A stretch of DNA of 63,553 nt, filler included, from Reclinomonas americana ATCC 50394 (Eukaryota), in NCBI GenBank assembly GCA_048213135.1. It is 12 parts of 3 records of this genome, joined end to end, with 100 filler letters (N's around TTAATTAATTAA, not from the genome) between each part and the next. Parts side by side here need not be neighbours in the genome. Positions count along the whole stretch, not along the records: positions 59,486 to 63,553 come from PS015572.1; 11 more parts are not named here. One strand, 5' to 3'. Position numbers and translations under genes: made by a program. Below are positions 4,216-61,847 of the stretch, piece after piece. How positions within the stretch are numbered: the stretch's first letter is position 1; the number at the start of each line of letters is the position of its first letter. The notes under the pieces were generated by a model. It saw nothing but the letters and a program-made list of their open reading frames with translations. It did no database searches and was not told where the DNA came from.

Positions 4216-6346
4216 ATGACAGTACGGCTACCACTACTGCTGCTACTGCTGCTGGTGGTGATTGCAGTGATCAGTCACAGCGCAAGTGCCGACCACATTG
4301 TGCGCAACGTGCGGCTTCCGGGCCAGCCCGCCAGCTACAATGCACCCATTCACGGTGGCTACATCACCATCAATGAGAGCACACAAAAGCAGCTCTTCTT
4401 CTTGTTCATGGAGAGCAAGCGCAACCCCGAGACCGACCCGTTGCGTGCCTGCCGCAAGAGAATGCGAGTGTGTCGACGACAGACAGTGATGATTGATTTT
4501 GCAATGCAGATTGATCGTTTGGCACAATGGTGGACCCGGCTGCTCCTCGCTCATTGATATGTTGTCGTCTTGTGTGTCGCCTTTGTCTTTGTGCGTGCAT
4601 TGTCGAGCTCATGACAAGTTCTTTCCCATCCGCGCACGAGCGTTCACAGAACTCGGACCCTTCTGGCCCCACAGCAATGGACGCGATTTGCAGTGGAACA
4701 GCAATGCGTGGAACCAGGTTGCGTCGGCGATGCCTGCCTGCATGCACAGACATGTATGAGCTGACTTGTGTGTCCATGCATGCCAGATCGCCAACATTGT
4801 GTTTGTGGAGAGCCCTGCGGGTGTGGGCTTCAGCACGTCGTCGCAAACCGCGGATTATCACACGGTCTGCTTTGTTATTTCCTGTCGCCTCTTCTTGGCA
4901 TTCTCTGACACGCGCGGGTGCTCGGCTTTCTTCTTCCGCAGGAGGACGCGCGGGTGGCGGCCGACGAGCTGGTGTTTGTAAAGGGCTTCTTGCAGCAGTT
5001 CCCGCAGTTTGCGAAGAACCCGATGTATCTGGCGGGCGAGAGTTGTGTTGCGGCTTGCTCTCCTTTTGCGAGGAGAGTGATGCGACTAAAGTGGATCCAT
5101 CATGTGCAGGTTTTGCTGGTCACTTTGTGCCGAACCTGGCGGTGCAGATCCGTCGCTACAACGACGCGCACGCCACAAACCCAATCAACCTGGTCGGTCT
5201 CTTGCTCGGTGCGTGCTTGATTCACACACACGTGCAGCATGCGTACTTGAGAGGCGCTGACTGTGGTGACTCGCCCAGGCAATCCGTGGCTGGACCCGTC
5301 GATCGACAATCGCGCCGTGGTGGACTTTTGGCTCAGCCACAGTCTCATTTCGTGGAAGACGCATGCCGACATTGTCGCCACCTGCCAGCTGGGTTCGATT
5401 GGCCCGCTGGCCGCCAACTGCAACAGCGCACTCGACCAGGCGGTGCGGGAGATTGGCGACATTAGCTTCTACTCGATCTACCAGGACGTCTGCTCGCCAC
5501 AGGCACAGACGGTGGCGTCGGCTGCCTCGGTCTCCCCAGCGTCCTCGATGGTGTGTTGCGAAAAACGACCGTCTCCCTCTCTTTTTCTTTCTGTACCTCA
5601 CTCCCTGGGTCGCTGCGTAGCCGCCGCTGATGCGTTTCCTGTCACGAANNNNNNNNNNNNNNNNNNNNNNNNNNNNNNNNNNNNNNNNNNNNNNNNNNNN
5701 NNNNNNNNNNNNNNNNNNNNNNNNNNNNNNNNNNNNNNNNNNNNNNNNNNNNNNNNNNNNNNNNNNNNNNNNNNNNNNNNNNNNNNNNNNNNNNNNNNNN
5801 NNNNNNNNNNNNNNNNNNNNNNNNNNNNNNNNNNNNNNNNNNNNNNNNNNNNNNNNNNNNNNNNNNNNNNNNNNNNNNNNNNNNNNNNNNNNNNNNNNNN
5901 NNNNNNNNNNNNNNNNNNNNNNNNNNNNNNNNNNNNNNNNNNNNNNNNNNNNNNNNNNNNNNNNNNNNNNNNNNNNNNNNNNNNNNNNNNNNNNNNNNNN
6001 NNNNNNNNNNNNNNNNNNNNNNNNNNNNNNNNNNNNNNNNNNNNNNNNNNNNNNNNNNNNNNNNNNNNNNNNNNNNNNNNNNNNNNNNNNNNNNNNNNNN
6101 NNNNNNNNNNNNNNNNNNNNNNNNNNNNNNNNNNNNNNNNNNNNNNNNNNNNNNNNNNNNNNNNNNNNNNNNNNNNNNNNNNNNNNNNNNNNNNNNNNNN
6201 NNNNNNNNNNNNNNNNNNNNNNNNNNNNNNNNNNNNNNNNNNNNNNNNNNNNNNNNNNNNNNNNNNNNNNNNNNNNNNNNNNNNNNNNNNNNNNNNNNNN
6301 NNNNNNNGTGGAGAAGCATGCCACCTTCCCCACGGCGTTTGAATAA
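4216..6346 (+). CDS. Serine carboxypeptidase, peptidase family S10 (secreted), central/C-terminal part in gap
   Basis: Signal peptide [20 protein letters not shown]. Motifs [45 protein letters not shown], catalytic GESFAGHFVP and GNP. The last exon 6308-6346 is tentative. Confidence 0.93.
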
Positions 6347-6657: not shown

Positions 6658-9535
<2,878 letters not shown>

Positions 9536-16704: not shown

Positions 16705-17651
16705 ATGCTGCTGCGCGCGGTGCTCCGTGGCAACTCGCCGTTTGCTCTGCAGGTACACGCGCGTCACACACACGCACGCACGCACGCCCTGTCTCTCCAT
16801 TCACGCGCTGGCCATGGCCATGACAATCACTCTCTCTCTCACACACACACTCTTACGCACACTCAGCGACGAGGGATGAATGTGATTCGGAAAGTGCCTC
16901 CGTCGACCGACGGTGGCGAACTGAGCGATTTCCCGGGCGCGGCGGCACCCTTCACCAGCAAAATTCACTTTGTGAAGGGTCATGCGGCGATGCCCGTGTA
17001 TCGTGTCATGGGTCTCGATGGGAACCTCTTGGTGCCCTCGGACGATCCACAGGTGTGTGCTTGTATGCAATTTCATTCACAAATGCATGCCACAGGGAGA
17101 ATCATTGCATCTTTTTCTTTTTGCGTGTAGTGGACCGAGGAGCGCAGTGTGTCGCTGTACAAGGAGATGGTGCAGCTGAGTGTGCTCGACGATATCATGT
17201 ACAAGGCGCAGCGGCACGGGCAGATTTCGTTCTACATGACCAACTATGGCGAGGAGGCGACGCAGATTGGCTCGGCGTTTGCGCTGGAGCCGACCGACAT
17301 GATCTTTGGGCAGTACCGCGAGGCCGGCGTGCTCTTCCACCGTGGATTCACGCTCAACGAGGCCATGGCGCAGCTCTTCTCGAGCAAGTCGGATCTCGGC
17401 AAGGGCCGCCAGATGCCCATTCATTACGGCTCGCGCAAGCTGAACTTCCAGGCATGTTGCTTCATTGTTGTTGCTCAGTCAGCAGTGTCAGTGCTGACCT
17501 GTGTGGTGGTGGTGTGTAGACCATCTCGTCGCCACTCGGCACGCAGATCCCGCAGGCGGCTGGTTCGGCGTACGCGTTCAAGCTGGCCCGCCGTCCCAAC
17601 ATTGTCATGTGCTACTTTGGTGAGGGCGCGGCCTCCGAGGGTGACTTCCAT
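16705..17651 (+). CDS. BCKDHA: Branched-chain alpha-keto acid dehydrogenase E1 alpha, 5' half
   Basis: Mitochondrial-type presequence [18 protein letters not shown], then [49 protein letters not shown] and [13 protein letters not shown]. Confidence 0.95.
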
Positions 17652-18490
17652 NNNNNNNNNNNNNNNNNNNNNNNNNNNNNNNNNNNNNNNNNNNNNNNNN
17701 NNNNNNNNNNNNNNNNNNNNNNNNNNNNNNNNNNNNNNNNNNNNNNNNNNNNNNNNNNNNNNNNNNNNNNNNNNNNNNNNNNNNNNNNNNNNNNNNNNNN
17801 NNNNNNNNNNNNNNNNNNNNNNNNNNNNNNNNNNNNNNNNNNNNNNNNNNNNNNNNNNNNNNNNNNNNNNNNNNNNNNNNNNNNNNNNNNNNNNNNNNNN
17901 NNNNNNNNNNNNNNNNNNNNNNNNNNNNNNNNNNNNNNNNNNNNNNNNNNNNNNNNNNNNNNNNNNNNNNNNNNNNNNNNNNNNNNNNNNNNNNNNNNNN
18001 NNNNNNNNNNNNNNNNNNNNNNNNNNNNNNNNNNNNNNNNNNNNNNNNNNNNNNNNNNNNNNNNNNNNNNNNNNNNNNNNNNNNNNNNNNNNNNNNNNNN
18101 NNNNNNNNNNNNNNNNNNNNNNNNNNNNNNNNNNNNNNNNNNNNNNNNNNNNNNNNNNNNNNNNNNNNNNNNNNNNNNNNNNNNNNNNNNNNNNNNNNNN
18201 NNNNNNNNNNNNNNNNNNNNNNNNNNNNNNNNNNNNNNNNNNNNNNNNNNNNNNNNNNNNNNNNNNNNNNNNNNNNNNNNNNNNNNNNNNNNNNNNNNNN
18301 NNNNNNNNNNNNNNNNNNNNNNNNNNNNNNNNNNNNNNNNNNNNNNNNNNNNNNNNNNNNNNNNNNNNNNNNNNNNNNNNNNNNNNNNNNNNNNNNNNNN
18401 NNNNNNNNNNNNNNNNNNNNNNNNNNNNNNNNNNNNNNNNNNNNNNNNNNNNNNNNNNNNNNNNNNNNNNNNNNNNNNNNNNNNNNNNNN

Positions 18491-19193
18491 CCACCACCAC
18501 CACCACCATGAGCACACCGAAAACAGCAAAGGGTGGCGATGTGCGAATTCACCTGTCGAGGTGGGAGACGACATTCTGGTGTGCCTCGGCTTGGTACGCC
18601 GCCTCCTTCTCCTTGTTCCACCAGCCCTTCTTCTCCAGATAGAGGCGGTAGCGGATGATGGGGTTGCGCGGAGTCTCGCGCCACTGTGTCAGCTCGTCCT
18701 TGGAGCGGTAGCGCGTGGAGTCGTCGGATGTCGAGTGGTGGCCACCTGCAGTGACCGGTGAGGTGGAGGAGGAGGAGGAGGGGGAGCAATGGTGACACAG
18801 ACTGACCTCGATAGCTCATTGCTTCAATGAGAACGGGGTGGTTGTGCTTCAGTGCCAACTCGCGTGCCTGCTTGGTGACATTGTAGACGGCGAACAGATC
18901 GTTGCCGTCGACTCGAATGCTGTGAATGCCGTAGCCGAGACCACGTGCGACAATACCGTCGCCTGTGATGCGCGGCGATGTGAGTCTGCGCTGCCACCAC
19001 AACTATAAGAGGAACCAGAGCAACGCACCGCGATACTGCTCGTGCGCCGGCGTGGAAATGGCGTAGCCATTGTTGCGGCAGAAGAAGACCACCGGGCACT
19101 GTGCGCGTGGTGTTCGTGCGTGAGTGTGTGTGCTCTTTCCTCGCCCTTCGTACGCACACGTACCTCCAGTGTGGCGGAAAAGTTCAGTGCGGC
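18491..19193 (-). CDS. BCKDHA: BCKDH E1 alpha, 3' half on an inverted contig
   Basis: [36 protein letters not shown] and [16 protein letters not shown] continue directly from the + strand half. Confidence 0.93.
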
Positions 19194-36114: not shown

Positions 36115-39100
36115 TTAACAGAGTTTGACTTGGATGGTGAAGGGCGAGCACTTGAGTGGTCCGTGCAGAACAGATTCCACGTGAAGAAGGTACGTCTCGG
36201 GGCGCGGTGGTGTGTACTTGATCGTGTACGTTCCGTCGCCTGCAGTGCCCGTGTCAGTTGATGCACACACGGAGAGACAGAAAGATAGAGAGAGAGAACC
36301 CACCGTTGCTGCTGACGGTGCAGAAGAACTTCTTCTCCTTGCCGTGCCGATCGGTGCCAAAGGCCGAAAAGTCCTCCTGTGGAATGGTATTCTGCAGCAC
36401 CTCGTTGCCGAAGCTGCAGCTCACAAGTATGAGAAATTTCAGTGTCGTCGGCTGCACGCCTCCACTCCGCTCTCACTCACCGATCACGTGAGAGCATGTG
36501 GAACTTGACGGGGAAGCCGACACGCGGTCGGTACAGGCCTGGCCCACGGCACTCAAAGGCCTCCAGCGACGCCATGGCTGGCGACACCACAAACACAGGC
36601 AGTCGGTGCTCCAGCAGCTTTCCGTTGCATCGCACGCTGAGCTGATTGTCGCCAGCCACTGTCGGATACAGTGCGAACTCGAGATCGCCATTCTTCTGTC
36701 GCTTGACCTGCGCGCCGAGGGAACGATGAGCACAGTGGGTGCAGCCAGGCGAAGTCGCACTGATAGCCATGGTCGCAACTTCGCCCTTGACTACGCTTGC
36801 ATTGTCGTCATTGACAGGCATGCATTCGACCTCAAAGTTCGCTTCCGACACAACATTGTCGAAGCGGTCGCGAGCCTCCACCAACCCACGCACCGCCGTG
36901 CCCGCAATGACACGTGCGTGGCCGCGCAGATGCAACAATACGACTGTCTTGGAGAGCACCGGCTCATCTGCGAGAGAGAGCGAGAGCGATGACCATCAGC
37001 AACATGCGTGGTGTCGAGAGCGACGTGAGCGGACTCTACCTGGCACCACTGCGAATATGGATGTCGGAGTGGCCGCCTGTCCATCAACGGTCACCAACAC
37101 TTGCGCTTCTCCGGCCACCTCTGGTACATAGGAGCACGTGTAGGTTCCATTACCGTGATTCACCACATCGCACACGAGGCTGGCGGCACGCGGAGTACTG
37201 CACCGGNNNNNNNNNNNNNNNNNNNNNNNNNNNNNNNNNNNNNNNNNNNNTTAATTAATTAANNNNNNNNNNNNNNNNNNNNNNNNNNNNNNNNNNNNNN
37301 NNNNNNGCAGTCCGTTTACCATCACGGTGTGCCGGGGCCGGTGTTTGCCAAGACCACGTATGTCACGGGTCCTGGCGTGAGTACCGCCCGCTGCGGGTCG
37401 ACCACAGAATTTTATGTGCAACTGCGTGACGCGTGCGGCAATTGCGTCTACACACCACATCCGGTCGTCAAGGCCACTGTGCTGCTTGGCATGCGGTGCG
37501 TCAGTGTGCTTCTGGGCTTCTGCATGCGCGTGTGATGGTGTGCTGATGGGTGTGATNNNNNNNNNNNNNNNNNNNNNNNNNNNNNNNNNNNNNNNNNNNN
37601 NNNNNNNNNNNNNNNNNNNNNNNNNNNNNNNNNNNNNNNNNNNNNNNNNNNNNNNNNNNNNNNNNNNNNNNNNNNNNNNNNNNNNNNNNNNNNNNNNNNN
37701 NNNNNNNNNNNNNNNNNNNNNNNNNNNNNNNNNNNNNNNNNNNNNNNNNNNNNNNNNNNNNNNNNNNNNNNNNNNNNNNNNNNNNNNNNNNNNNNNNNNN
37801 NNNNNNNNNNNNNNNNNNNNNNNNNNNNNNNNNNNNNNNNNNNNNNNNNNNNNNNNNNNNNNNNNNNNNNNNNNNNNNNNNNNNNNNNNNNNNNNNNNNN
37901 NNNNNNNNNNNNNNNNNNNNNNNNNNNNNNNNNNNNNNNNNNNNNNNNNNNNNNNNNNNNNNNNNNNNNNNNNNNNNNNNNNNNNNNNNNNNNNNNNNNN
38001 NNNNNNNNNNNNNNNNNNNNNNNNNNNNNNNNNNNNNNNNNNNNNNNNNNNNNNNNNNNNNNNNNNNNNNNNNNNNNNNNNNNNNNNNNNNNNNNNNNNN
38101 NNNNNNNNNNNNNNNNNNNNNNNNNNNNNNNNNNNNNNNNNNCAAACACCGGCACGTCGGCCACAGTCACGGTCATTGAGTGGAGACCAGCTTGCTCCAG
38201 TCGCTCGCAAATCTGCTCATGCGCTCTCGTCAGTCATAATTTGGCGTTCATGACGAGCAGAAACAACACACACACGTTCTCACCTGATGCGTGCCATCCA
38301 TGTTGTCGACAGACGCAAGCTCGGCTGACCACTCGTTCTCGGCAGAGGTGGCGTAAGGGCGCTGGCGAAGTGTCGGCTGTGTGCAGTGTTCAGTGAGCAT
38401 GATGATCCCACAAGTGCGCAGGATGACGAACTGCCACAACCAACCATCCACGCTGCCACGGGCACCACCACGCGGTCCAGACGCAATGTCACCCGCACTT
38501 GTTGGCCGCCGCGACTGCACGGCTGCAGGTATCGATCGGCAATCTGCAACACAGCATCCATCTCCACCGGCGCCACACCACCCAACATGCCGAAGCCGGT
38601 GAGGGTGCAGTTTGCCGGCACCGGAGCCGAGTCGGCGGTAAATGAGGCCCACTCGGCGGCACCCTCACCGCCAGCAATCTTGCGGAAGCGCTCGGAGAGT
38701 GTGTCACTTAGCGCCACCACCTGGTCAAACAGATCGCGACCGCACGCCTCGTACACGTCGTGCGTGCATTCCTCTGCAGGACACGATACGATGCAGGGAG
38801 GTAATGTGTAAGACGGGGGAAATTGATCTTTTCTGGCAGTGGCGTAAACTACAGACCGCGCTCTGCCAGTTTGAGCAACAGCTTCAGCGACTCGCGCGAG
38901 GCCTCCGAGTCTGGCGAATCCCGATAGTGCTTCACCAACATTGGAATTACGTTTTGTGCCACCAACTCCGACGTGTTGGCCTCTGCTCAGCGGCACATGC
39001 CGGTGAGAAGTCAGCAGAAGAGGGCAGCCGTGGCTCAAGGAAAAGCACCCACCGTTTCTAATCAAGTGGCGCAGAATCTTCAGACTGGCCTCTTGCGCCT

Positions 39101-48100: not shown

Positions 48101-49790
48101 CCAGCTCCAGTTTCTCCAGCAGCAATGCAATAACACCCTGCGCAATCAACAGTTTCTTGCCATCATCTGCGCGCAGCGCCTTGCTCTGTATGCATGATAC
48201 AATCGATCTGTTAACAGCAAACTGCTCGTACCCGTGACGGCTAGAGTGCCGATGAGCCGTGCTGCTTCAGCCACCAATATGTGGTCATCGGTTTCCAGTG
48301 CCCCCACCACGACTTCGTATTCGCCGTGATACTCGAGTGCGGCTCGGTTCTCATCTGTCACAGTGGTCAGCACATACTCCAGTCTGCGTGACGCAGTCTG
48401 TCATGAGGGGACGCACCAGAAATGGCAATGTTGGCAAAGAACGTAGAGGCCGCGGTCTTTACGTCCACCGAATCCGACTGCAACTGCAGCAGCGTGAACA
48501 TACTGCCGAGTTCCAGGAGCTGACGACGCACTCGATCTGCATTCCACAGCAAAGGCACTGAGCAACATCTGTAGGTCTGCAAAGGCAGTGGCGAGGAGAA
48601 CCTTCGTGCTCTCGCGTCTTGATCTTGCGAATGTAGTCGATCATGATGCGGAACGACTCGGCGCGATCGGTCTCAAAGACCTGAATGGCAGCCACGAGGC
48701 GGTCTCGTAATACAGCGGCCTACGCCAAGCAGCAACAGCATCATGAGTAAGGAAGTGGCATCATGCCCGCCAACAGCAACACTCGTCGTGACAAAACTCG
48801 TTGCTTGAGACGACCTGGATCCTCGGCAAGTGGCAGCCCGATAATGTCGTCAAAGAGACGGTGAATATCGTCGAGTGCCATGTCCACACTCAGGTAGAGA
48901 TTGCGCTCGCAATTGTCCTTCATGCGCGACAGATCTGTCGCCGCGCAAAAGTCAACGTAGCCGAGAGCTTCGAGATGTGCGGGAATGTCGGCCTTGGTCT
49001 GTGATGGCACAGCGCGCGCGTTCAGCGTGAAACGAGAGAACGAAAAACGGCGTGGAGCATGCACGCAACAGAGCAGAACCAAAAGTGGCGGAATTCGGGC
49101 AAGTTCTGCTGGTTGATGGCTTGCAGTAAGTGATTGTTGAACGAGCGCCGACAATGTTCCTCCTCGTGCACCACATCCACTAAATCTTCGGGGGTGCTCA
49201 CTCGCTCTGTGTGAACAAAGCGAGAATGAGAAGATGATGGTCGACTCCACCGCAGTAAAAAAAGAAAACAGACACAACTGGAGTATGCAATGTTCGCCAG
49301 AGCGCCCAGTGCAGCCGCTTGCGCCGACGTATCAGCGAAACCAATCACATCGAGCAAACGATGGCCAGTCTTCTCCAGCACAACGTCCTTGTTCTCCTCA
49401 AGCCTGGCCACACGACCAGTGGCTTTGGCGACCTGTGCAATCAGTTCCTCCTCGTTGCGATACATGAGCTGGAGAAGGATCTTCAGTCCGTCGAGTTGCA
49501 CGAAAAAGTACGCAATGTCCTCTGTGCAAGGCACACACAGTGCGTGTGAGTGCCAGCGGTGAAGACACATACGAGACTCACACAAGCGAACCGTCTGCCA
49601 CCAGCTCGGCGGTGGCACGCGCAATCTCGGTCAACACCGACACTTTCGATTCGCTGCGGAGGCGCTTCACCAAGCGATGCAGAACGCCCTCCTTTACAAA
49701 CTCCTTTCGCAGCGATGGGTCTGCACGGAAGCGCAGTGGGTGGTCAGCAACGAGTGACGGGTTACTCTGCTGCTCACTGCAAGATGACAC
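36115..49790 (-). CDS. Giant armadillo-repeat protein with an internal acidic/RS segment and C-terminal filamin-type Ig repeats. 5' end missing; contigs 37306-37556 and 45460-46972 are flipped to +
   Basis: Many ARM-like repeats (e.g. EFKMQIGQRGGLPALVELM...AVRVIAN). RSRSRS tract near 39700-39775. The exon at ~38455-38776 runs from an ARM-like segment into a filamin repeat (NCTLTGFGMLGG...DNMDGTH). Further repeats: CRGPGLYRPRVG, GDGTYTIKYTP...SPF. Continuity across linkers is inferred. Confidence 0.7.
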
Positions 49791-58904: not shown

Positions 58905-59364
58905 AGATGGACAACGAAAGGACACAGTGGATGACGATGATGTGCAGCGGGTGCTCCGAAGAAGTTGCGCTCGTGATGTGTGAGCGGAGTATGTGCGTTT
59001 TCGTTCTCATTTTTTCGTTTTTTCATCCTCCAGATTCCGCCAACTTGTACTCGCTGTGCAACAAGATCATGGCCAACCTCAACGACAGTGTGCACTCCAT
59101 TCCGTACGGCGTGCGCTACGTCGCCAAGTGCATCAAGACGTTGCGTTGTGCTCACGCATGCATCTCCATGCTCTTCTGCTCCTCACCACCTCGCGCAGAC
59201 TGACACTGAAGCACTTCCCGGAGGAGCCCGAGGACAGCGTGCGCAAGCTGCTCGGCATCTTTGTGTTTGTCAATTTCATCATTCCAGCCATTACGGATCC
59301 AGAAAAGTACGGTGTGGTGCGCTCGCAGTACATTACGGTCAACCAACGGGAGACACTGGCCACG
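58905..59364 (+). CDS. RasGAP domain exons on a flipped contig
   Basis: SIPYGVRYVAKCI and LLGIFVFVNFIIPAITDPEKYG (RasGAP FLR...PA.P region with a VN substitution). Confidence 0.8.
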
Positions 59365-59707
59365 GTGAGCTAGAGAGGGAGAGGGNNNNNNNNNNNNNNN
59401 NNNNNNNNNNNNNNNNNNNNNNNNNNNNNTTAATTAATTAANNNNNNNNNNNNNNNNNNNNNNNNNNNNNNNNNNNNNNNNNNNNGAGGAGCGTGCACAT
59501 AAAAAAAGATGATGGGAAAAACGAGGAGCAAATGTTGGCGAAGAGAAAAAAGGTAGTGGGTGAGGGGGGAGAAAGGGGGATTAAAAACCGCAACAACAAG
59601 AACCGCGATGAATGGGGGGAGGAGGAAGGAGGGAGGGAGTGGGGGAAAAATCAGTCACAAAGAAAAGCAAGGAAAAAAAAGAGTGCCCTCTTTCTCTCTC
59701 TTGTGGT

Positions 59708-59812
59708 TTAGTAGAGGTTGGTCTTCTTCATGATGCGCAGGAACTCGTCCTCGTTGATCTCACCGTCGCCATCGCGATCTGCCTCGTCAATCATCTCCTG
59801 CAGCTCCTCATC
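59708..59812 (-). CDS. Centrin terminal exon (EF-hand 4): second centrin gene or alternative last exon
   Basis: Phase-1 acceptor tgtag|AT GAG GAG, giving [34 protein letters not shown], a canonical centrin C-terminus. Confidence 0.85.
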
Positions 59813-60119
59813 TACAATCGCAATCGCATCTCNNNNNNNNNNNNNNNNNNNNNNNNNNNNNNNNNNNNNNNNNNNNNNNNNNNNNNNNNNNNNNNNNNNN
59901 NNNNNNNNNNNNNNNGGTTTTTTTTTGCAAGGGAGCCGCAGAGGAGCGATGGAAGAGGAGACGGAGAGGGAGAGTGAGAGAAGGGATGGATGCTGCTGTA
60001 ATGAGCGCTGTGTGTGTACTTCTTCGTCATGTGACTGCGACATTTGTTTGGTTCCATTTTGTTTCTGTTTCATTCACACAATGGCAGTGGCGCGCCTCTC
60101 GCCACGCACCACCACCCAC

Positions 60120-61184
60120 TCAGTACGCCGACGTCTTCTTCATGAGACGCACAAAATCGTTGAGATCAATGAGCCCGTCGCCATCGCGATCGGCCTCGTA
60201 AATCATTTCTTGCAGCTCGTAGTCTGGTGACAAAGGATGATGAACAGACAAGAGGGAGGCAAGCACACAGGATGGTTGGGTACGCACCTTCCAGCTTCTC
60301 ACCGAGGTCGGCGGCGACCTTGCGTAGCTCGGGAATGCCGACCTTGCCGGAGGCTGCAATGCAACGCAATAATGAGGGAAGAAAGAAAGAAGCGGCGACA
60401 ACCACCACCGCTCCATTGCACTCAACGACCCGCAAAGAGCGTGTACGCCTGCTGCAACTCCTCTCGCGTGTCCTTCTGGCCCATCTTTGTGGCGATGAGC
60501 TCGAGGAACTCGGGAAAGTCAATCTGTCCGCTGCCGTCGCGATCGGCTTGCGCCATCATCTGCACGCACGAATGAGTGGACGATGTGGAGGCAGGCAGAC
60601 GAAGAAGTAGACGCAACTCGCTTGATCTCATCGCGTCCCGAGTCAAAGCCAAGCGTCTGCATGGCCACCTTCAGCTCCTTGGCATCGATTTGACCTGCAC
60701 GCGCGATGAGGAAAAATACAAGCGCTCGCAGTGTTGGTGAGTGTGGCGAAACACACCTGAGCCCTGTGATGAGAGATTGCCGCGTGCGAGAGCAAGAAAG
60801 CAAGGATGAGTGCGTGTCGGGAAGAGCAAGAGCGAAAAGAGCAGTCACACGGAACACTGTGCGCGCAAGGAGGAGTCAGACGAGTGTGATGCATCGCGCG
60901 TGGGGATTCACTAGACGCAACTCTGTGTCGAACAAATCAAACGCCTGCACATGCACACACGTACACAGAAGAGGTGAGAGACGCGCGGAGTTGCACTGTG
61001 ACACAGACGCACCCACTCTCACCTCGCGGATCTCGACTTTTTGATCATCCGTCAGTTCCACCTTGCCGCGTCCGCGCGCTCTTGATGTGCCCGTGTTGGT
61101 TCGTCGGTACTGTGCCTGTGTCATGCATGTGTGAGCAGTGCGCGTGGGGGGGGGCAGCGAGAGAGGGGGGCAGGCGCACACCAT
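60120..61184 (-). CDS. Centrin (caltractin) with 1-nt and 7-nt microexons
   Basis: M|AQYRR...[39 protein letters not shown]...DRDGSGQIDFPEFL...[15 protein letters not shown]...MKKTSAY*. Confidence 0.92.
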
Positions 61185-61847
61185 TCACGTTGTGAGCAGA
61201 TTTCACGGCCGATTCCGTCGACTGGCATCACATCACTTTATCTCGCTCGCTTCTGCGCCTGCATTCTCTCGCTCAACAAAGGTTGGTCTCTGCCCGCTGT
61301 CTGTCGCTGCATTGTGCATTCGCTCTGTTTGCTTCGTGCGCGCGTCAGTTGTGTGTGTGTGCGCACTTGTTGAGTGTGAGAGATGTCCATTGCAACCTTG
61401 CGCCACACACACTCTCTCTCCCCTTCCCTCTCTCTCTCGCTCTCTGCGTGCGTATGCGTGCCGTTGTGAATGCGTCGTCTGGTGCGTGCGTGTGTGTGTT
61501 TTTGTGAGGTGATGCACGCTGATGCAGCTATTTCCTGTTGACTGTTTGATGGGGCAGATCGCGCCCGTTCACTCCCTCTTTTTTTTTCTCTGCATCAGAG
61601 CGCTGCCTCAATCAAAATAGCTTTTGTTTGTGTGTGTGAGAGAGAGCACCAAGTACTCCCACGAAGAAAGAGAGACTCACTTGACAGAGAAAGGTGCGCG
61701 GTGAGACAGTGTGTGTGCGTGTGTGTGCGCATCGCGCCAACATTTCCCTCGCTGTCTTCGTGCCTCCCCCCGTTCCATCCATGTCGTTCCCTGTGGCTGG
61801 CGTGCTCACTCTCCCACTTCACTCTCGCGCACACACGTAGACTTGCA

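Follow-up and report, generated by a model that had tools for sequence, protein, structure and literature searches.

Can an exon consist of a single nucleotide? The question is raised by a gene for a centrin-like EF-hand protein in Reclinomonas americana ATCC 50394 (GenBank assembly GCA_048213135.1). The gene lies at 61124-60120 on the minus strand of the 63,553-nucleotide (nt) stretch of DNA that was analysed, called the window below. Inside it, a lone T at position 60856 sits between the AG that would end one intron and the GT that would begin the next. We consider it likely that this T is a real 1-nt exon in the loop of EF-hand 1. The sequence itself establishes the letters, the need of the frame for the T, the fact that the splice path is unique, the statistics of splice signals and lengths, and the family assignment; that the T is present in the mature mRNA, that the transcript containing it is the main isoform, and that the introns on either side are removed sequentially is what we infer from them.

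The first step is to ask what the T does to the reading frame. The minus strand of 59300-61500 was read, and every junction was re-derived by script from its coordinates; the positions and letters in the initial annotation, which had proposed the exon, are all as given there. Exon 2 (60922-60944, on the minus strand like all the features of this gene; 23 nt) encodes AFDLFDT and ends ...TTC GAC ACA GA, the final GA being the start of an Asp codon. After it come intron 2a (60857-60921, 65 nt), the T, intron 2b (60764-60855, 92 nt), a 7-nt exon GGCTCAG (60757-60763), intron 3 (60695-60756, 62 nt, GTGTGTT...GTGCAG) and exon 5 (60618-60694, 77 nt), which starts GT and continues CAA ATC GAT. The site of the T reads CACAG-T-GTTCCGT (60861-60849), with the base bounded directly by AG and GT, and by inspection of the letters the 158-nt interval contains no other AG-N-GT.

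When GA, T, GGCTCAG and GT are joined by coordinates they read Asp-Gly-Ser-Gly, and this completes the 12-residue loop of EF-hand 1. The T would be the third base of the Asp codon at loop position 3, the 7-nt exon supplies Gly, Ser and the first base of the next Gly, without which the G-S-G of the loop is lost, and the GT of exon 5 completes that last codon. The proposed spliced junction is ...ACAGA-T-GGCTCAG-GTCAAATC..., in which three introns interrupt the 12 nt that encode loop residues 3-6 (D-G-S-G), all three within 8 nt of mRNA. The claim that the two microexons together build a canonical centrin loop is thereby borne out. So is the claim that skipping the T shifts the frame: if it is omitted and the other junctions are kept, the next exon is out of frame and a stop follows within a few codons (by inspection of the letters). 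The complete coding sequence, 510 nt from the ATG at 61124 to the stop at 60122-60120, is open throughout only if both T 60856 and GGCTCAG 60763-60757 are exons. The resulting gene model has eight exons and seven introns (78, 65, 92, 62, 58, 76 and 64 nt) and encodes 169 amino acids (aa).

Is there another way through this region? Splice paths between 60944 and 60618 were enumerated, with GT or GC donors, AG acceptors, introns of 30-300 nt and at most four introns per path. Each path had to start with AFDLFD, end with IDAKELK... and stay in frame without stops. There are 430 such paths, 45 of which give a segment of 40 aa or less, and the junction pair that omits the T is missing from them. 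Just one of the 45 short paths (60921-60857 / 60855-60764 / 60756-60695) gives a 12-residue EF-hand loop, and this is the path that includes the T. The base also restores a conserved residue. In 122 EF-hand homologues, namely those whose first alignment covers the loop of EF-hand 1 (mostly calmodulin-type loops), position 3 is Asp in 115, Asn in four, and Ser, Arg and Glu in one each. None of the loops tallied has an insertion relative to the model, and the six closest centrin-type loops read DTDGSGTIDAKE. T or C at 60856 would encode Asp, and A or G would encode Glu.

Among the other short paths, one of 39 aa is the strongest canonical competitor. It stays in frame on GT-AG sites alone, with the 7-nt exon included and no 1-nt exon. 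Its donor is at 60911 (GTGAAT) and its intron of 148 nt runs to 60764, which makes exon 2 longer by 10 nt and gives the loop DTELRLGSGQID, longer by three residues. A protein that already tolerates a degenerate EF-hand 3 (see below) might tolerate this as well. However, a loop with an insertion has no counterpart among the loops tallied from the homologues, and the predicted protein scores 176 bits with P0133, one of the closest centrin representatives, against 183 for the model with the T. The 10 nt that would become coding (GTTGCGTCTA) are the same as those that start intron 4, and represent an enriched donor motif; moreover the 148-nt intron is a length outlier. Use of the 60911 donor is thus highly improbable.

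The next step is to look at the splice signals. Intron 2a starts GTTGCGTCTA (GTTGCGT), has a branch-like CTGAC about 22 nt before its 3' end and ends CACAG, with no AG between the CTGAC and 60857 on inspection of the letters. Intron 2b starts GTTCCGT and ends ATCACAG; a branch-like CTCAT occurs about 7 and about 45 nt from its 3' end, and inspection found no internal AG. Both introns flanking the T thus have signals of their own, the branch site being less clear in 2b. The acceptor of 2b is required in every model that keeps the 7-nt exon.

The two donors belong to a motif that is common locally. GTTSCGT occurs at 43 sites in the window (37 GTTGCGT and 6 GTTCCGT), against 21.8 +/- 5.0 expected, and 0 of 100 dinucleotide-preserving shuffles reach 43. 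The donors of introns 2a and 4 share 10 of 10 bases (GTTGCGTCTA), and the boundaries of intron 4 (60560-60617, 58 nt, ending GTGCAG) are fixed by homology. At many of the GTTGCGT sites there is a YTSAY and a CAG some 60-80 nt downstream, with frames open on both sides; examples are at 4718, 54856, 59140 and 61927 on the plus strand, and at 49069 and 29718 on the minus strand. Introns of this kind have a branch-like YTSAY, mostly a G/A-C-A-G acceptor, and a modal length of 60-79 nt. As read from the window, this donor consensus is unusual for a eukaryote. The initial annotation had called the donors typical of this genome, which is a good description of GTTGCGT (37 sites, enriched) but less so of the GTTCCGT that follows the T, a variant with six sites that is one mismatch away from the over-represented form.

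It is of importance here where the information in the donor lies. Exon positions -3 to -1 of 21 GTTGCGT introns contain only 0.04-0.19 bits, and on this basis donors of the GTTGCGT class would be recognised from the intron side alone. A 1-nt exon requires just this. A more general donor matrix, built by means of a filter for continuity of the open reading frame (ORF), was abandoned: 829 of 7,499 GT sites passed it, which is too loose. An origin of the seven introns from introners or repeats was also considered and rejected, because blastn against the window gave only self-matches and chance matches of 15 nt or less.

Intron length provides a further line of evidence. At 24 of the 37 GTTGCGT sites there is a candidate acceptor within 45-130 nt with the frame open for 25 codons on both sides, and the shortest candidate introns at these sites are 58-99 nt long. 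The 21 reference GTTGCGT introns outside the centrin gene measure 59-88 nt, with a median of 71 (a range partly imposed by the search range of 55-90 nt), and the five introns of the centrin gene that are fixed by homology measure 58-78 nt. When the scan was widened to 40-300 nt, the 60-79 nt bin held 12 candidates for 35 sites and the 100-139 nt bins held none; beyond 100 nt no bin rises over the level of GAGTG, a flat control motif. This was the usable control, two further control motifs being contaminated by overlap with real donors. Given a local mode of 60-79 nt, introns of 65 and 92 nt fit, while the merged interval of 158 nt is about twice the mode. The description of all three introns as normal in size with GT-AG ends holds: all three are GT-AG, and 65 and 62 nt fit well, with 92 nt slightly above the 59-88 nt of the reference set.

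Could the interval nevertheless be one intron, removed by non-canonical splicing? There is a G at both 60921 and 60764, so that a shift of 1 nt at either end restores the frame. A single intron of 157/158 nt could have the boundaries TT...AG, GT...CA or AG...AC, three equivalent descriptions given the G next to each junction, and the codon would then be GAG (Glu), with the T left out. The protein with Glu scores 181 bits with P0133, compared to 183 for the model with the T. Against this, GT-AG ends with C or T ahead of the AG are seen in all 26 introns of the reference set and the gene (in part an effect of the filter), the length would be an outlier, Glu is present in 1 of the 122 homologues, and the signals around the T would be left as coincidence. 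This makes such a non-canonical intron very unlikely.

How readily could the signals around the T arise by chance? For each of two models, 20,000 introns of 158 nt were simulated, either by a Markov model trained on the 26 introns or by shuffling of the real interval. An internal AG-N-GT with T or C as its N and with both halves of 55-95 nt, whose acceptor is YAG and which has a YTSAY of the branch-like type, appears in 2.3% (Markov) and 0.6% (shuffle) of them. Addition of a GTTSCGT donor lowers these frequencies to 0.025% and 0.005%, but this donor criterion was picked after the sequence had been seen, a point to be counted with the adverse ones collected below, and the true chance frequency therefore lies between the bounds with and without the donor. 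The window was also scanned by signals only for microexons of 1-15 nt, defined as an acceptor, 1-15 nt and a donor of the common classes, with introns of 50-100 nt on both sides. There were four hits: the T, an artefact at 60922, and two candidates on the plus strand, at 9135 (12 nt) and 51453 (15 nt). Hits of this sort should not be taken as evidence of a genome-wide microexon habit.

What is the protein? The predicted product has four EF-hand units and an N-terminal extension, and is closer to centrins than to calmodulins. Pfam EF-hand_1 is matched by exon 6 with an E value of 2.6e-07 and by exon 8 with one of 6.2e-09; exon 5 alone (25 aa) has no Pfam match. With exon 6 as the query, HMMER picked out 4,921 EF-hand proteins at E<=1e-3 from 1.84 billion representatives, and the best 150 of these are 30-50% identical to exon 6; a near relative is absent among these 150, which served as a comparison set only. 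When the spliced model was compared with the same 150, four of them (P0133, P0148, P0035 and P0127) gave 58-61% identity over 149-159 residues, and the next-best representatives, of unassigned family, gave 46-50%. P0133 matches caltractin and centrin-2 in PDB with E values of 6e-85 to 2e-78. In tblastn against the window, P0133 and P0148 place every larger exon, and leave uncovered only the D-G-S-G between ...FDLFDT and QIDAKE.... On these grounds the gene product is assigned as a divergent centrin, divergent because its EF-hand 3 is two residues short.

The rest of the gene is laid out as follows. The coding part of exon 1 (61023-61124) starts with the ATG at 61124 and encodes the N-terminal extension, ending ...EIRE; the tblastn match of P0133 covers ...ELT..QK.EIRE. 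An out-of-frame ATG is present at 61128-61124 on the minus strand, 4 nt upstream of the proposed start (CACATGCATGACACAGG); on inspection of the letters, the frame of this ATG is closed within exon 1. Intron 1 (60945-61022, 78 nt, GTGAGAG...GTGCAG) has boundaries set by the continuity of the homology. Downstream of the loop, exon 5 is matched by P0133 and P0148 with 60-61% identity (tblastn), and exon 6 (60430-60559, 130 nt) encodes EF-hand 2, as indicated by both Pfam and tblastn. Intron 5 (60354-60429, 76 nt, GTCGTTG...ATTGCAG) leads to exon 7 (60288-60353, 66 nt), the region of EF-hand 3. The loop of this EF-hand is two residues shorter than in the centrin representatives and is without acidic loop residues, and it is probably not a calcium site. 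Finally, intron 6 (60224-60287, 64 nt, GTGCGTA...CACCAG) precedes exon 8 (60120-60223), which contains EF-hand 4 and the stop and is 71% identical to P0133 and P0148 by tblastn.

A second centrin exon is found nearby. At 59709-59811 on the minus strand, just past an N gap (59833-59915), there is a more canonical centrin last exon that ends in a stop. Its identity to P0133 and P0148 is 89-92% (tblastn). A ...TTGTAG acceptor precedes it, with a codon phase equal to that of intron 6 in the main gene, and the remainder of its gene falls outside the window. It may represent a tandem paralogue or an alternative 3' exon, or may stem from a scaffold join.

This exon bears on the possibility that the gene with the T is an unproductive or decaying copy. 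In that case the T would usually be skipped, or the gene would be a young pseudogene that has lost 1 nt; in most cases the transcript would be frameshifted and lost to degradation, and canonical centrin function would come from the paralogue with the last exon at 59709-59811. In favour are the EF-hand 3 that is already two residues short and the more canonical exon just downstream. An artificial 1-nt exon in potato invertase is, furthermore, reported to be skipped in 33% of transcripts (PMC4674806). However, with the T included the 510-nt frame is open, all seven introns are GT-AG, and EF-hands 1, 2 and 4 keep canonical loops, and the argument from coincidence in simulated introns weighs against this explanation as well. 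We regard it as unlikely.

Relatives were looked for in other collections. In a word-indexed protein search with the 43-aa exon 6 against longer proteins, three candidates shared words and none scored. A metagenome scan gave 25 loci with distant centrins or EF-hand genes, as partial matches with a best-segment identity of 32-72% (most 35-50%). Their EF-1 loops are uninterrupted, and the loci are therefore uninformative on the arrangement of 1-nt and 7-nt exons. Many of them (L001, L003-L013, L015 and L016) have in-frame TAA or TAG, and gaps of about 20 nt after ...IDPK, which suggests ciliate-type genetic codes and tiny introns in organisms unrelated to that of the window.

A number of observations weigh against a real 1-nt exon, and they are collected here. 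An internal AG-N-GT of any kind is common: it occurs in 3 of the 21 reference introns, in 1 of the 5 in-gene introns and in 20-46% of the simulated 158-nt introns. The bare AG-N-GTTSCGT shows no enrichment: it occurs at 3 sites where 1.3 are expected, a count that is reached in 15 of 100 shuffles. Three of the six GTTCCGT sites in the window pass a loose intron filter, the site at the T included; elsewhere in the window GTTCCGT is a candidate donor only. In intron 2b, the branch-like motif closest to the acceptor is only about 7 nt away from it, and its 92 nt exceed the length of all 21 reference introns. In the 40-300 nt scan, 5 of 20 'first' candidates were at least 140 nt long, although at noise level. 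The reference introns were selected by the GTTGCGT motif together with an ORF filter, not from transcripts; the set is therefore biased and cannot exclude rare long introns. The same protein has a degenerate EF-hand 3, and a non-canonical EF-hand 1 is therefore not unthinkable. The protein, metagenome and window tblastn searches found no orthologue or paralogue covering the EF-1 region. Lastly, the assembly has only reached the stage of a fragmented draft: of the 63,553 bases of the window, 8,813 are N, in 41 runs.

A side observation concerns the variant donor. At 36230 (+) a candidate intron of 94 nt starts GTTCCGT and has the end CTGACGGTGCAG / ...GCTGACGGTGCAG; it is the sole other plausible GTTCCGT donor in the window.

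The draft state of the assembly makes a missing base the main rival. The true genome would then be one base longer at a junction, most concretely by a fourth G in the GGG at 60764-60762. A single GT-AG intron of 158 nt would join GA to GGGCTCAG and give an in-frame Glu-Gly-Ser-Gly, and the AG-T-GT would be coincidental. The homopolymer is exactly at the acceptor, and the frequency of internal AG-N-GT just noted also favours this explanation. It requires, however, an intron of 158 nt, against a local mode of 60-79 nt and a length scan that stays at or below the control beyond 100 nt, and a Glu at loop position 3, found in 1 of 122 homologues against 115 with Asp. It also leaves unexplained why a CTGAC...CAG acceptor and a GTTSCGT-type donor should meet at the T (chance 0.6-2.3%, or 0.005-0.025% with the donor). 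An error in the assembly is therefore improbable, and a 1-nt exon is preferred as the best explanation of the DNA: it lies on the only path with a normal loop, and fits the local signals and lengths.

Some further features of the assembly can be noted. The window consists of small scaffolds joined by 44 N + TTAATTAATTAA + 44 N (e.g. at 59386-59485), in addition to N gaps of 20-956 nt, so that neighbouring genes are not necessarily linked. Two pieces of the Pfam domain E1_dh (dehydrogenase E1 component) are found at 17131-17649 (+) and 18490-19002 (-), covering profile positions 2-108 and 176-226. They lie on opposite strands on either side of a gap (17652-18490), and may reflect a contig placed in the scaffold in inverted orientation, or else two different genes.

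How would a 1-nt exon at 60856 be spliced? We suggest that the three short introns would each be recognised independently, by intron definition. Each would rely on a GT donor read from the intron side only, a branch-like YTSAY, the first AG as the acceptor, and a size close to the narrow modal length. Only one base separates the acceptor of 2a from the donor of 2b, which makes successive removal most likely and simultaneous assembly on both introns unlikely. Stepwise removal of 2a and 2b would be functionally a recursive-splicing step that retains one base. If 2a were removed first, the product would read ...GAT/GTTCCGT, a normal donor; if 2b were removed first, it would read ...CACAG/TGGCTCAG, a normal acceptor. 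Because donors of the GTTGCGT class have no exon-side consensus, the sequence dictates no order and either intron could go first. The 1-nt exon of the initial annotation is retained as likely; that it is constitutive, as was also proposed there, is a prediction, and an ordered removal is plausible. Pairing of the donor at 60921 with the branch site and acceptor that belong to 2b would leave the T out and shift the frame of the mRNA.

The wider proposal has more parts, namely that a 1-nt exon is mainly included, next to a 7-nt exon, in a eukaryote that is neither plant nor fungus and has a purely intronic GTTGCGT motif. We consider this reasonably probable. If true, it would add a third independent lineage and a third gene family with a 1-nt exon, and this would be the first 1-nt exon with another ultra-short exon as its partner. 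Such a finding would favour the idea that 1-nt exons appear wherever introns are short, intron definition operates and the signals lie wholly on the intron side. It would also provide a natural substrate in which, given recognition free of exon-side bases and a tightly set intron length, the spliceosome can define introns with next to no exon in between. A further prediction is that double-length introns elsewhere in this genome conceal more 1-nt exons. The centrin gene is one that gene predictors will break or frameshift, and a cheap annotation rule for short-intron genomes would be to look, as in this case, for an intron of about twice the modal length with AG-N-GT inside it where the gene lacks one base for its frame. 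Taken on the evidence of the DNA, the exon is a well-supported prediction of moderate interest.

It remains to compare the centrin T with known systems. At a ratchet point of recursive splicing (a zero-length exon), the 3' splice site directly abuts a 5' splice site, and removal of the upstream part regenerates a donor; no base is left in the mRNA, and the arrangement serves very long introns. The centrin site is similar in that removal of 2a would regenerate a donor, but differs in that its introns are short and that one base, T 60856, sits between AG and GT and would be kept, as the frame needs it. In a stwintron (spliceosomal twin intron), one intron lies inside a splice signal (donor, branch or acceptor) of another, and the outer intron becomes complete only after the first excision. 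Introns 2a and 2b are instead adjacent and un-nested, and each has its GT, branch-like motif and AG intact in the genomic DNA.

A single full-text literature search on 'single-nucleotide exon' and its variants found none in a centrin gene, and two documented nuclear cases. These two, APC11 of Arabidopsis (PMC4674806) and CYP621A of Fusarium (PMC12940212), agree with the statement of the initial annotation that such exons are very rarely documented. There is in addition a mitochondrial single-base exon, in the cox1 gene of placozoans (PMC5436844).

Exon A333 of Arabidopsis thaliana APC11 was proven by cDNA, genomic re-sequencing and minigenes mutated by A>T, A>G, A>TT and deletion (Guo & Liu 2015, PMC4674806). 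The authors proposed intron definition with stepwise (recursive) removal, and recursive splicing is named as a model in their Discussion. As with the centrin T, there is one base between AG and GT, inside what was annotated as a single intron, and it is required for the frame; the proposed mechanism is also the one suggested here. The differences are that APC11 is proven at the RNA level, whereas the centrin T is predicted from genomic sequence, and that the APC11 base is 333 nt into an interval of 422 nt, as compared to centrin introns of 65 and 92 nt, a mode of about 70 nt, and a 7-nt exon next to it.

The 1-nt exon of the Fusarium cytochrome P450 gene CYP621A lies in an interval annotated as an intron of 139 nt, where the median is 56 nt, and it was this length that raised the suspicion. 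It is conserved in 20 orthologues, was confirmed by 18 reads from the Sequence Read Archive (SRA), and is called 'the second example' (Nelson & Syed 2026, PMC12940212). The resemblance to the centrin T is considerable: both genomes have short introns, the intron is more than twice the median, the base is flanked by AG and GT, and it belongs to a codon of a conserved motif. The Fusarium exon has the support of orthologues and reads, whereas the centrin T is so far read from DNA, and comes from another lineage and gene family with a different donor consensus (GTTGCGT).

Among longer microexons, the plant database MEPDB covers exons of 1-15 nt (PMC12409088), and a 9-nt exon in potato invertase is cited by Guo & Liu (PMC4674806). 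These resemble the centrin case in being coding exons far below the size needed for exon definition, which usually go unannotated. The plant microexons are constitutive and supported by transcripts, while in the centrin gene a 1-nt and a 7-nt exon would stand back to back, with three introns in 8 nt of mRNA. We conclude that 1-nt exons as such are known already; what appears to be peculiar to the predicted centrin exon is the adjacent 7-nt exon, together with a donor consensus that is purely intronic.

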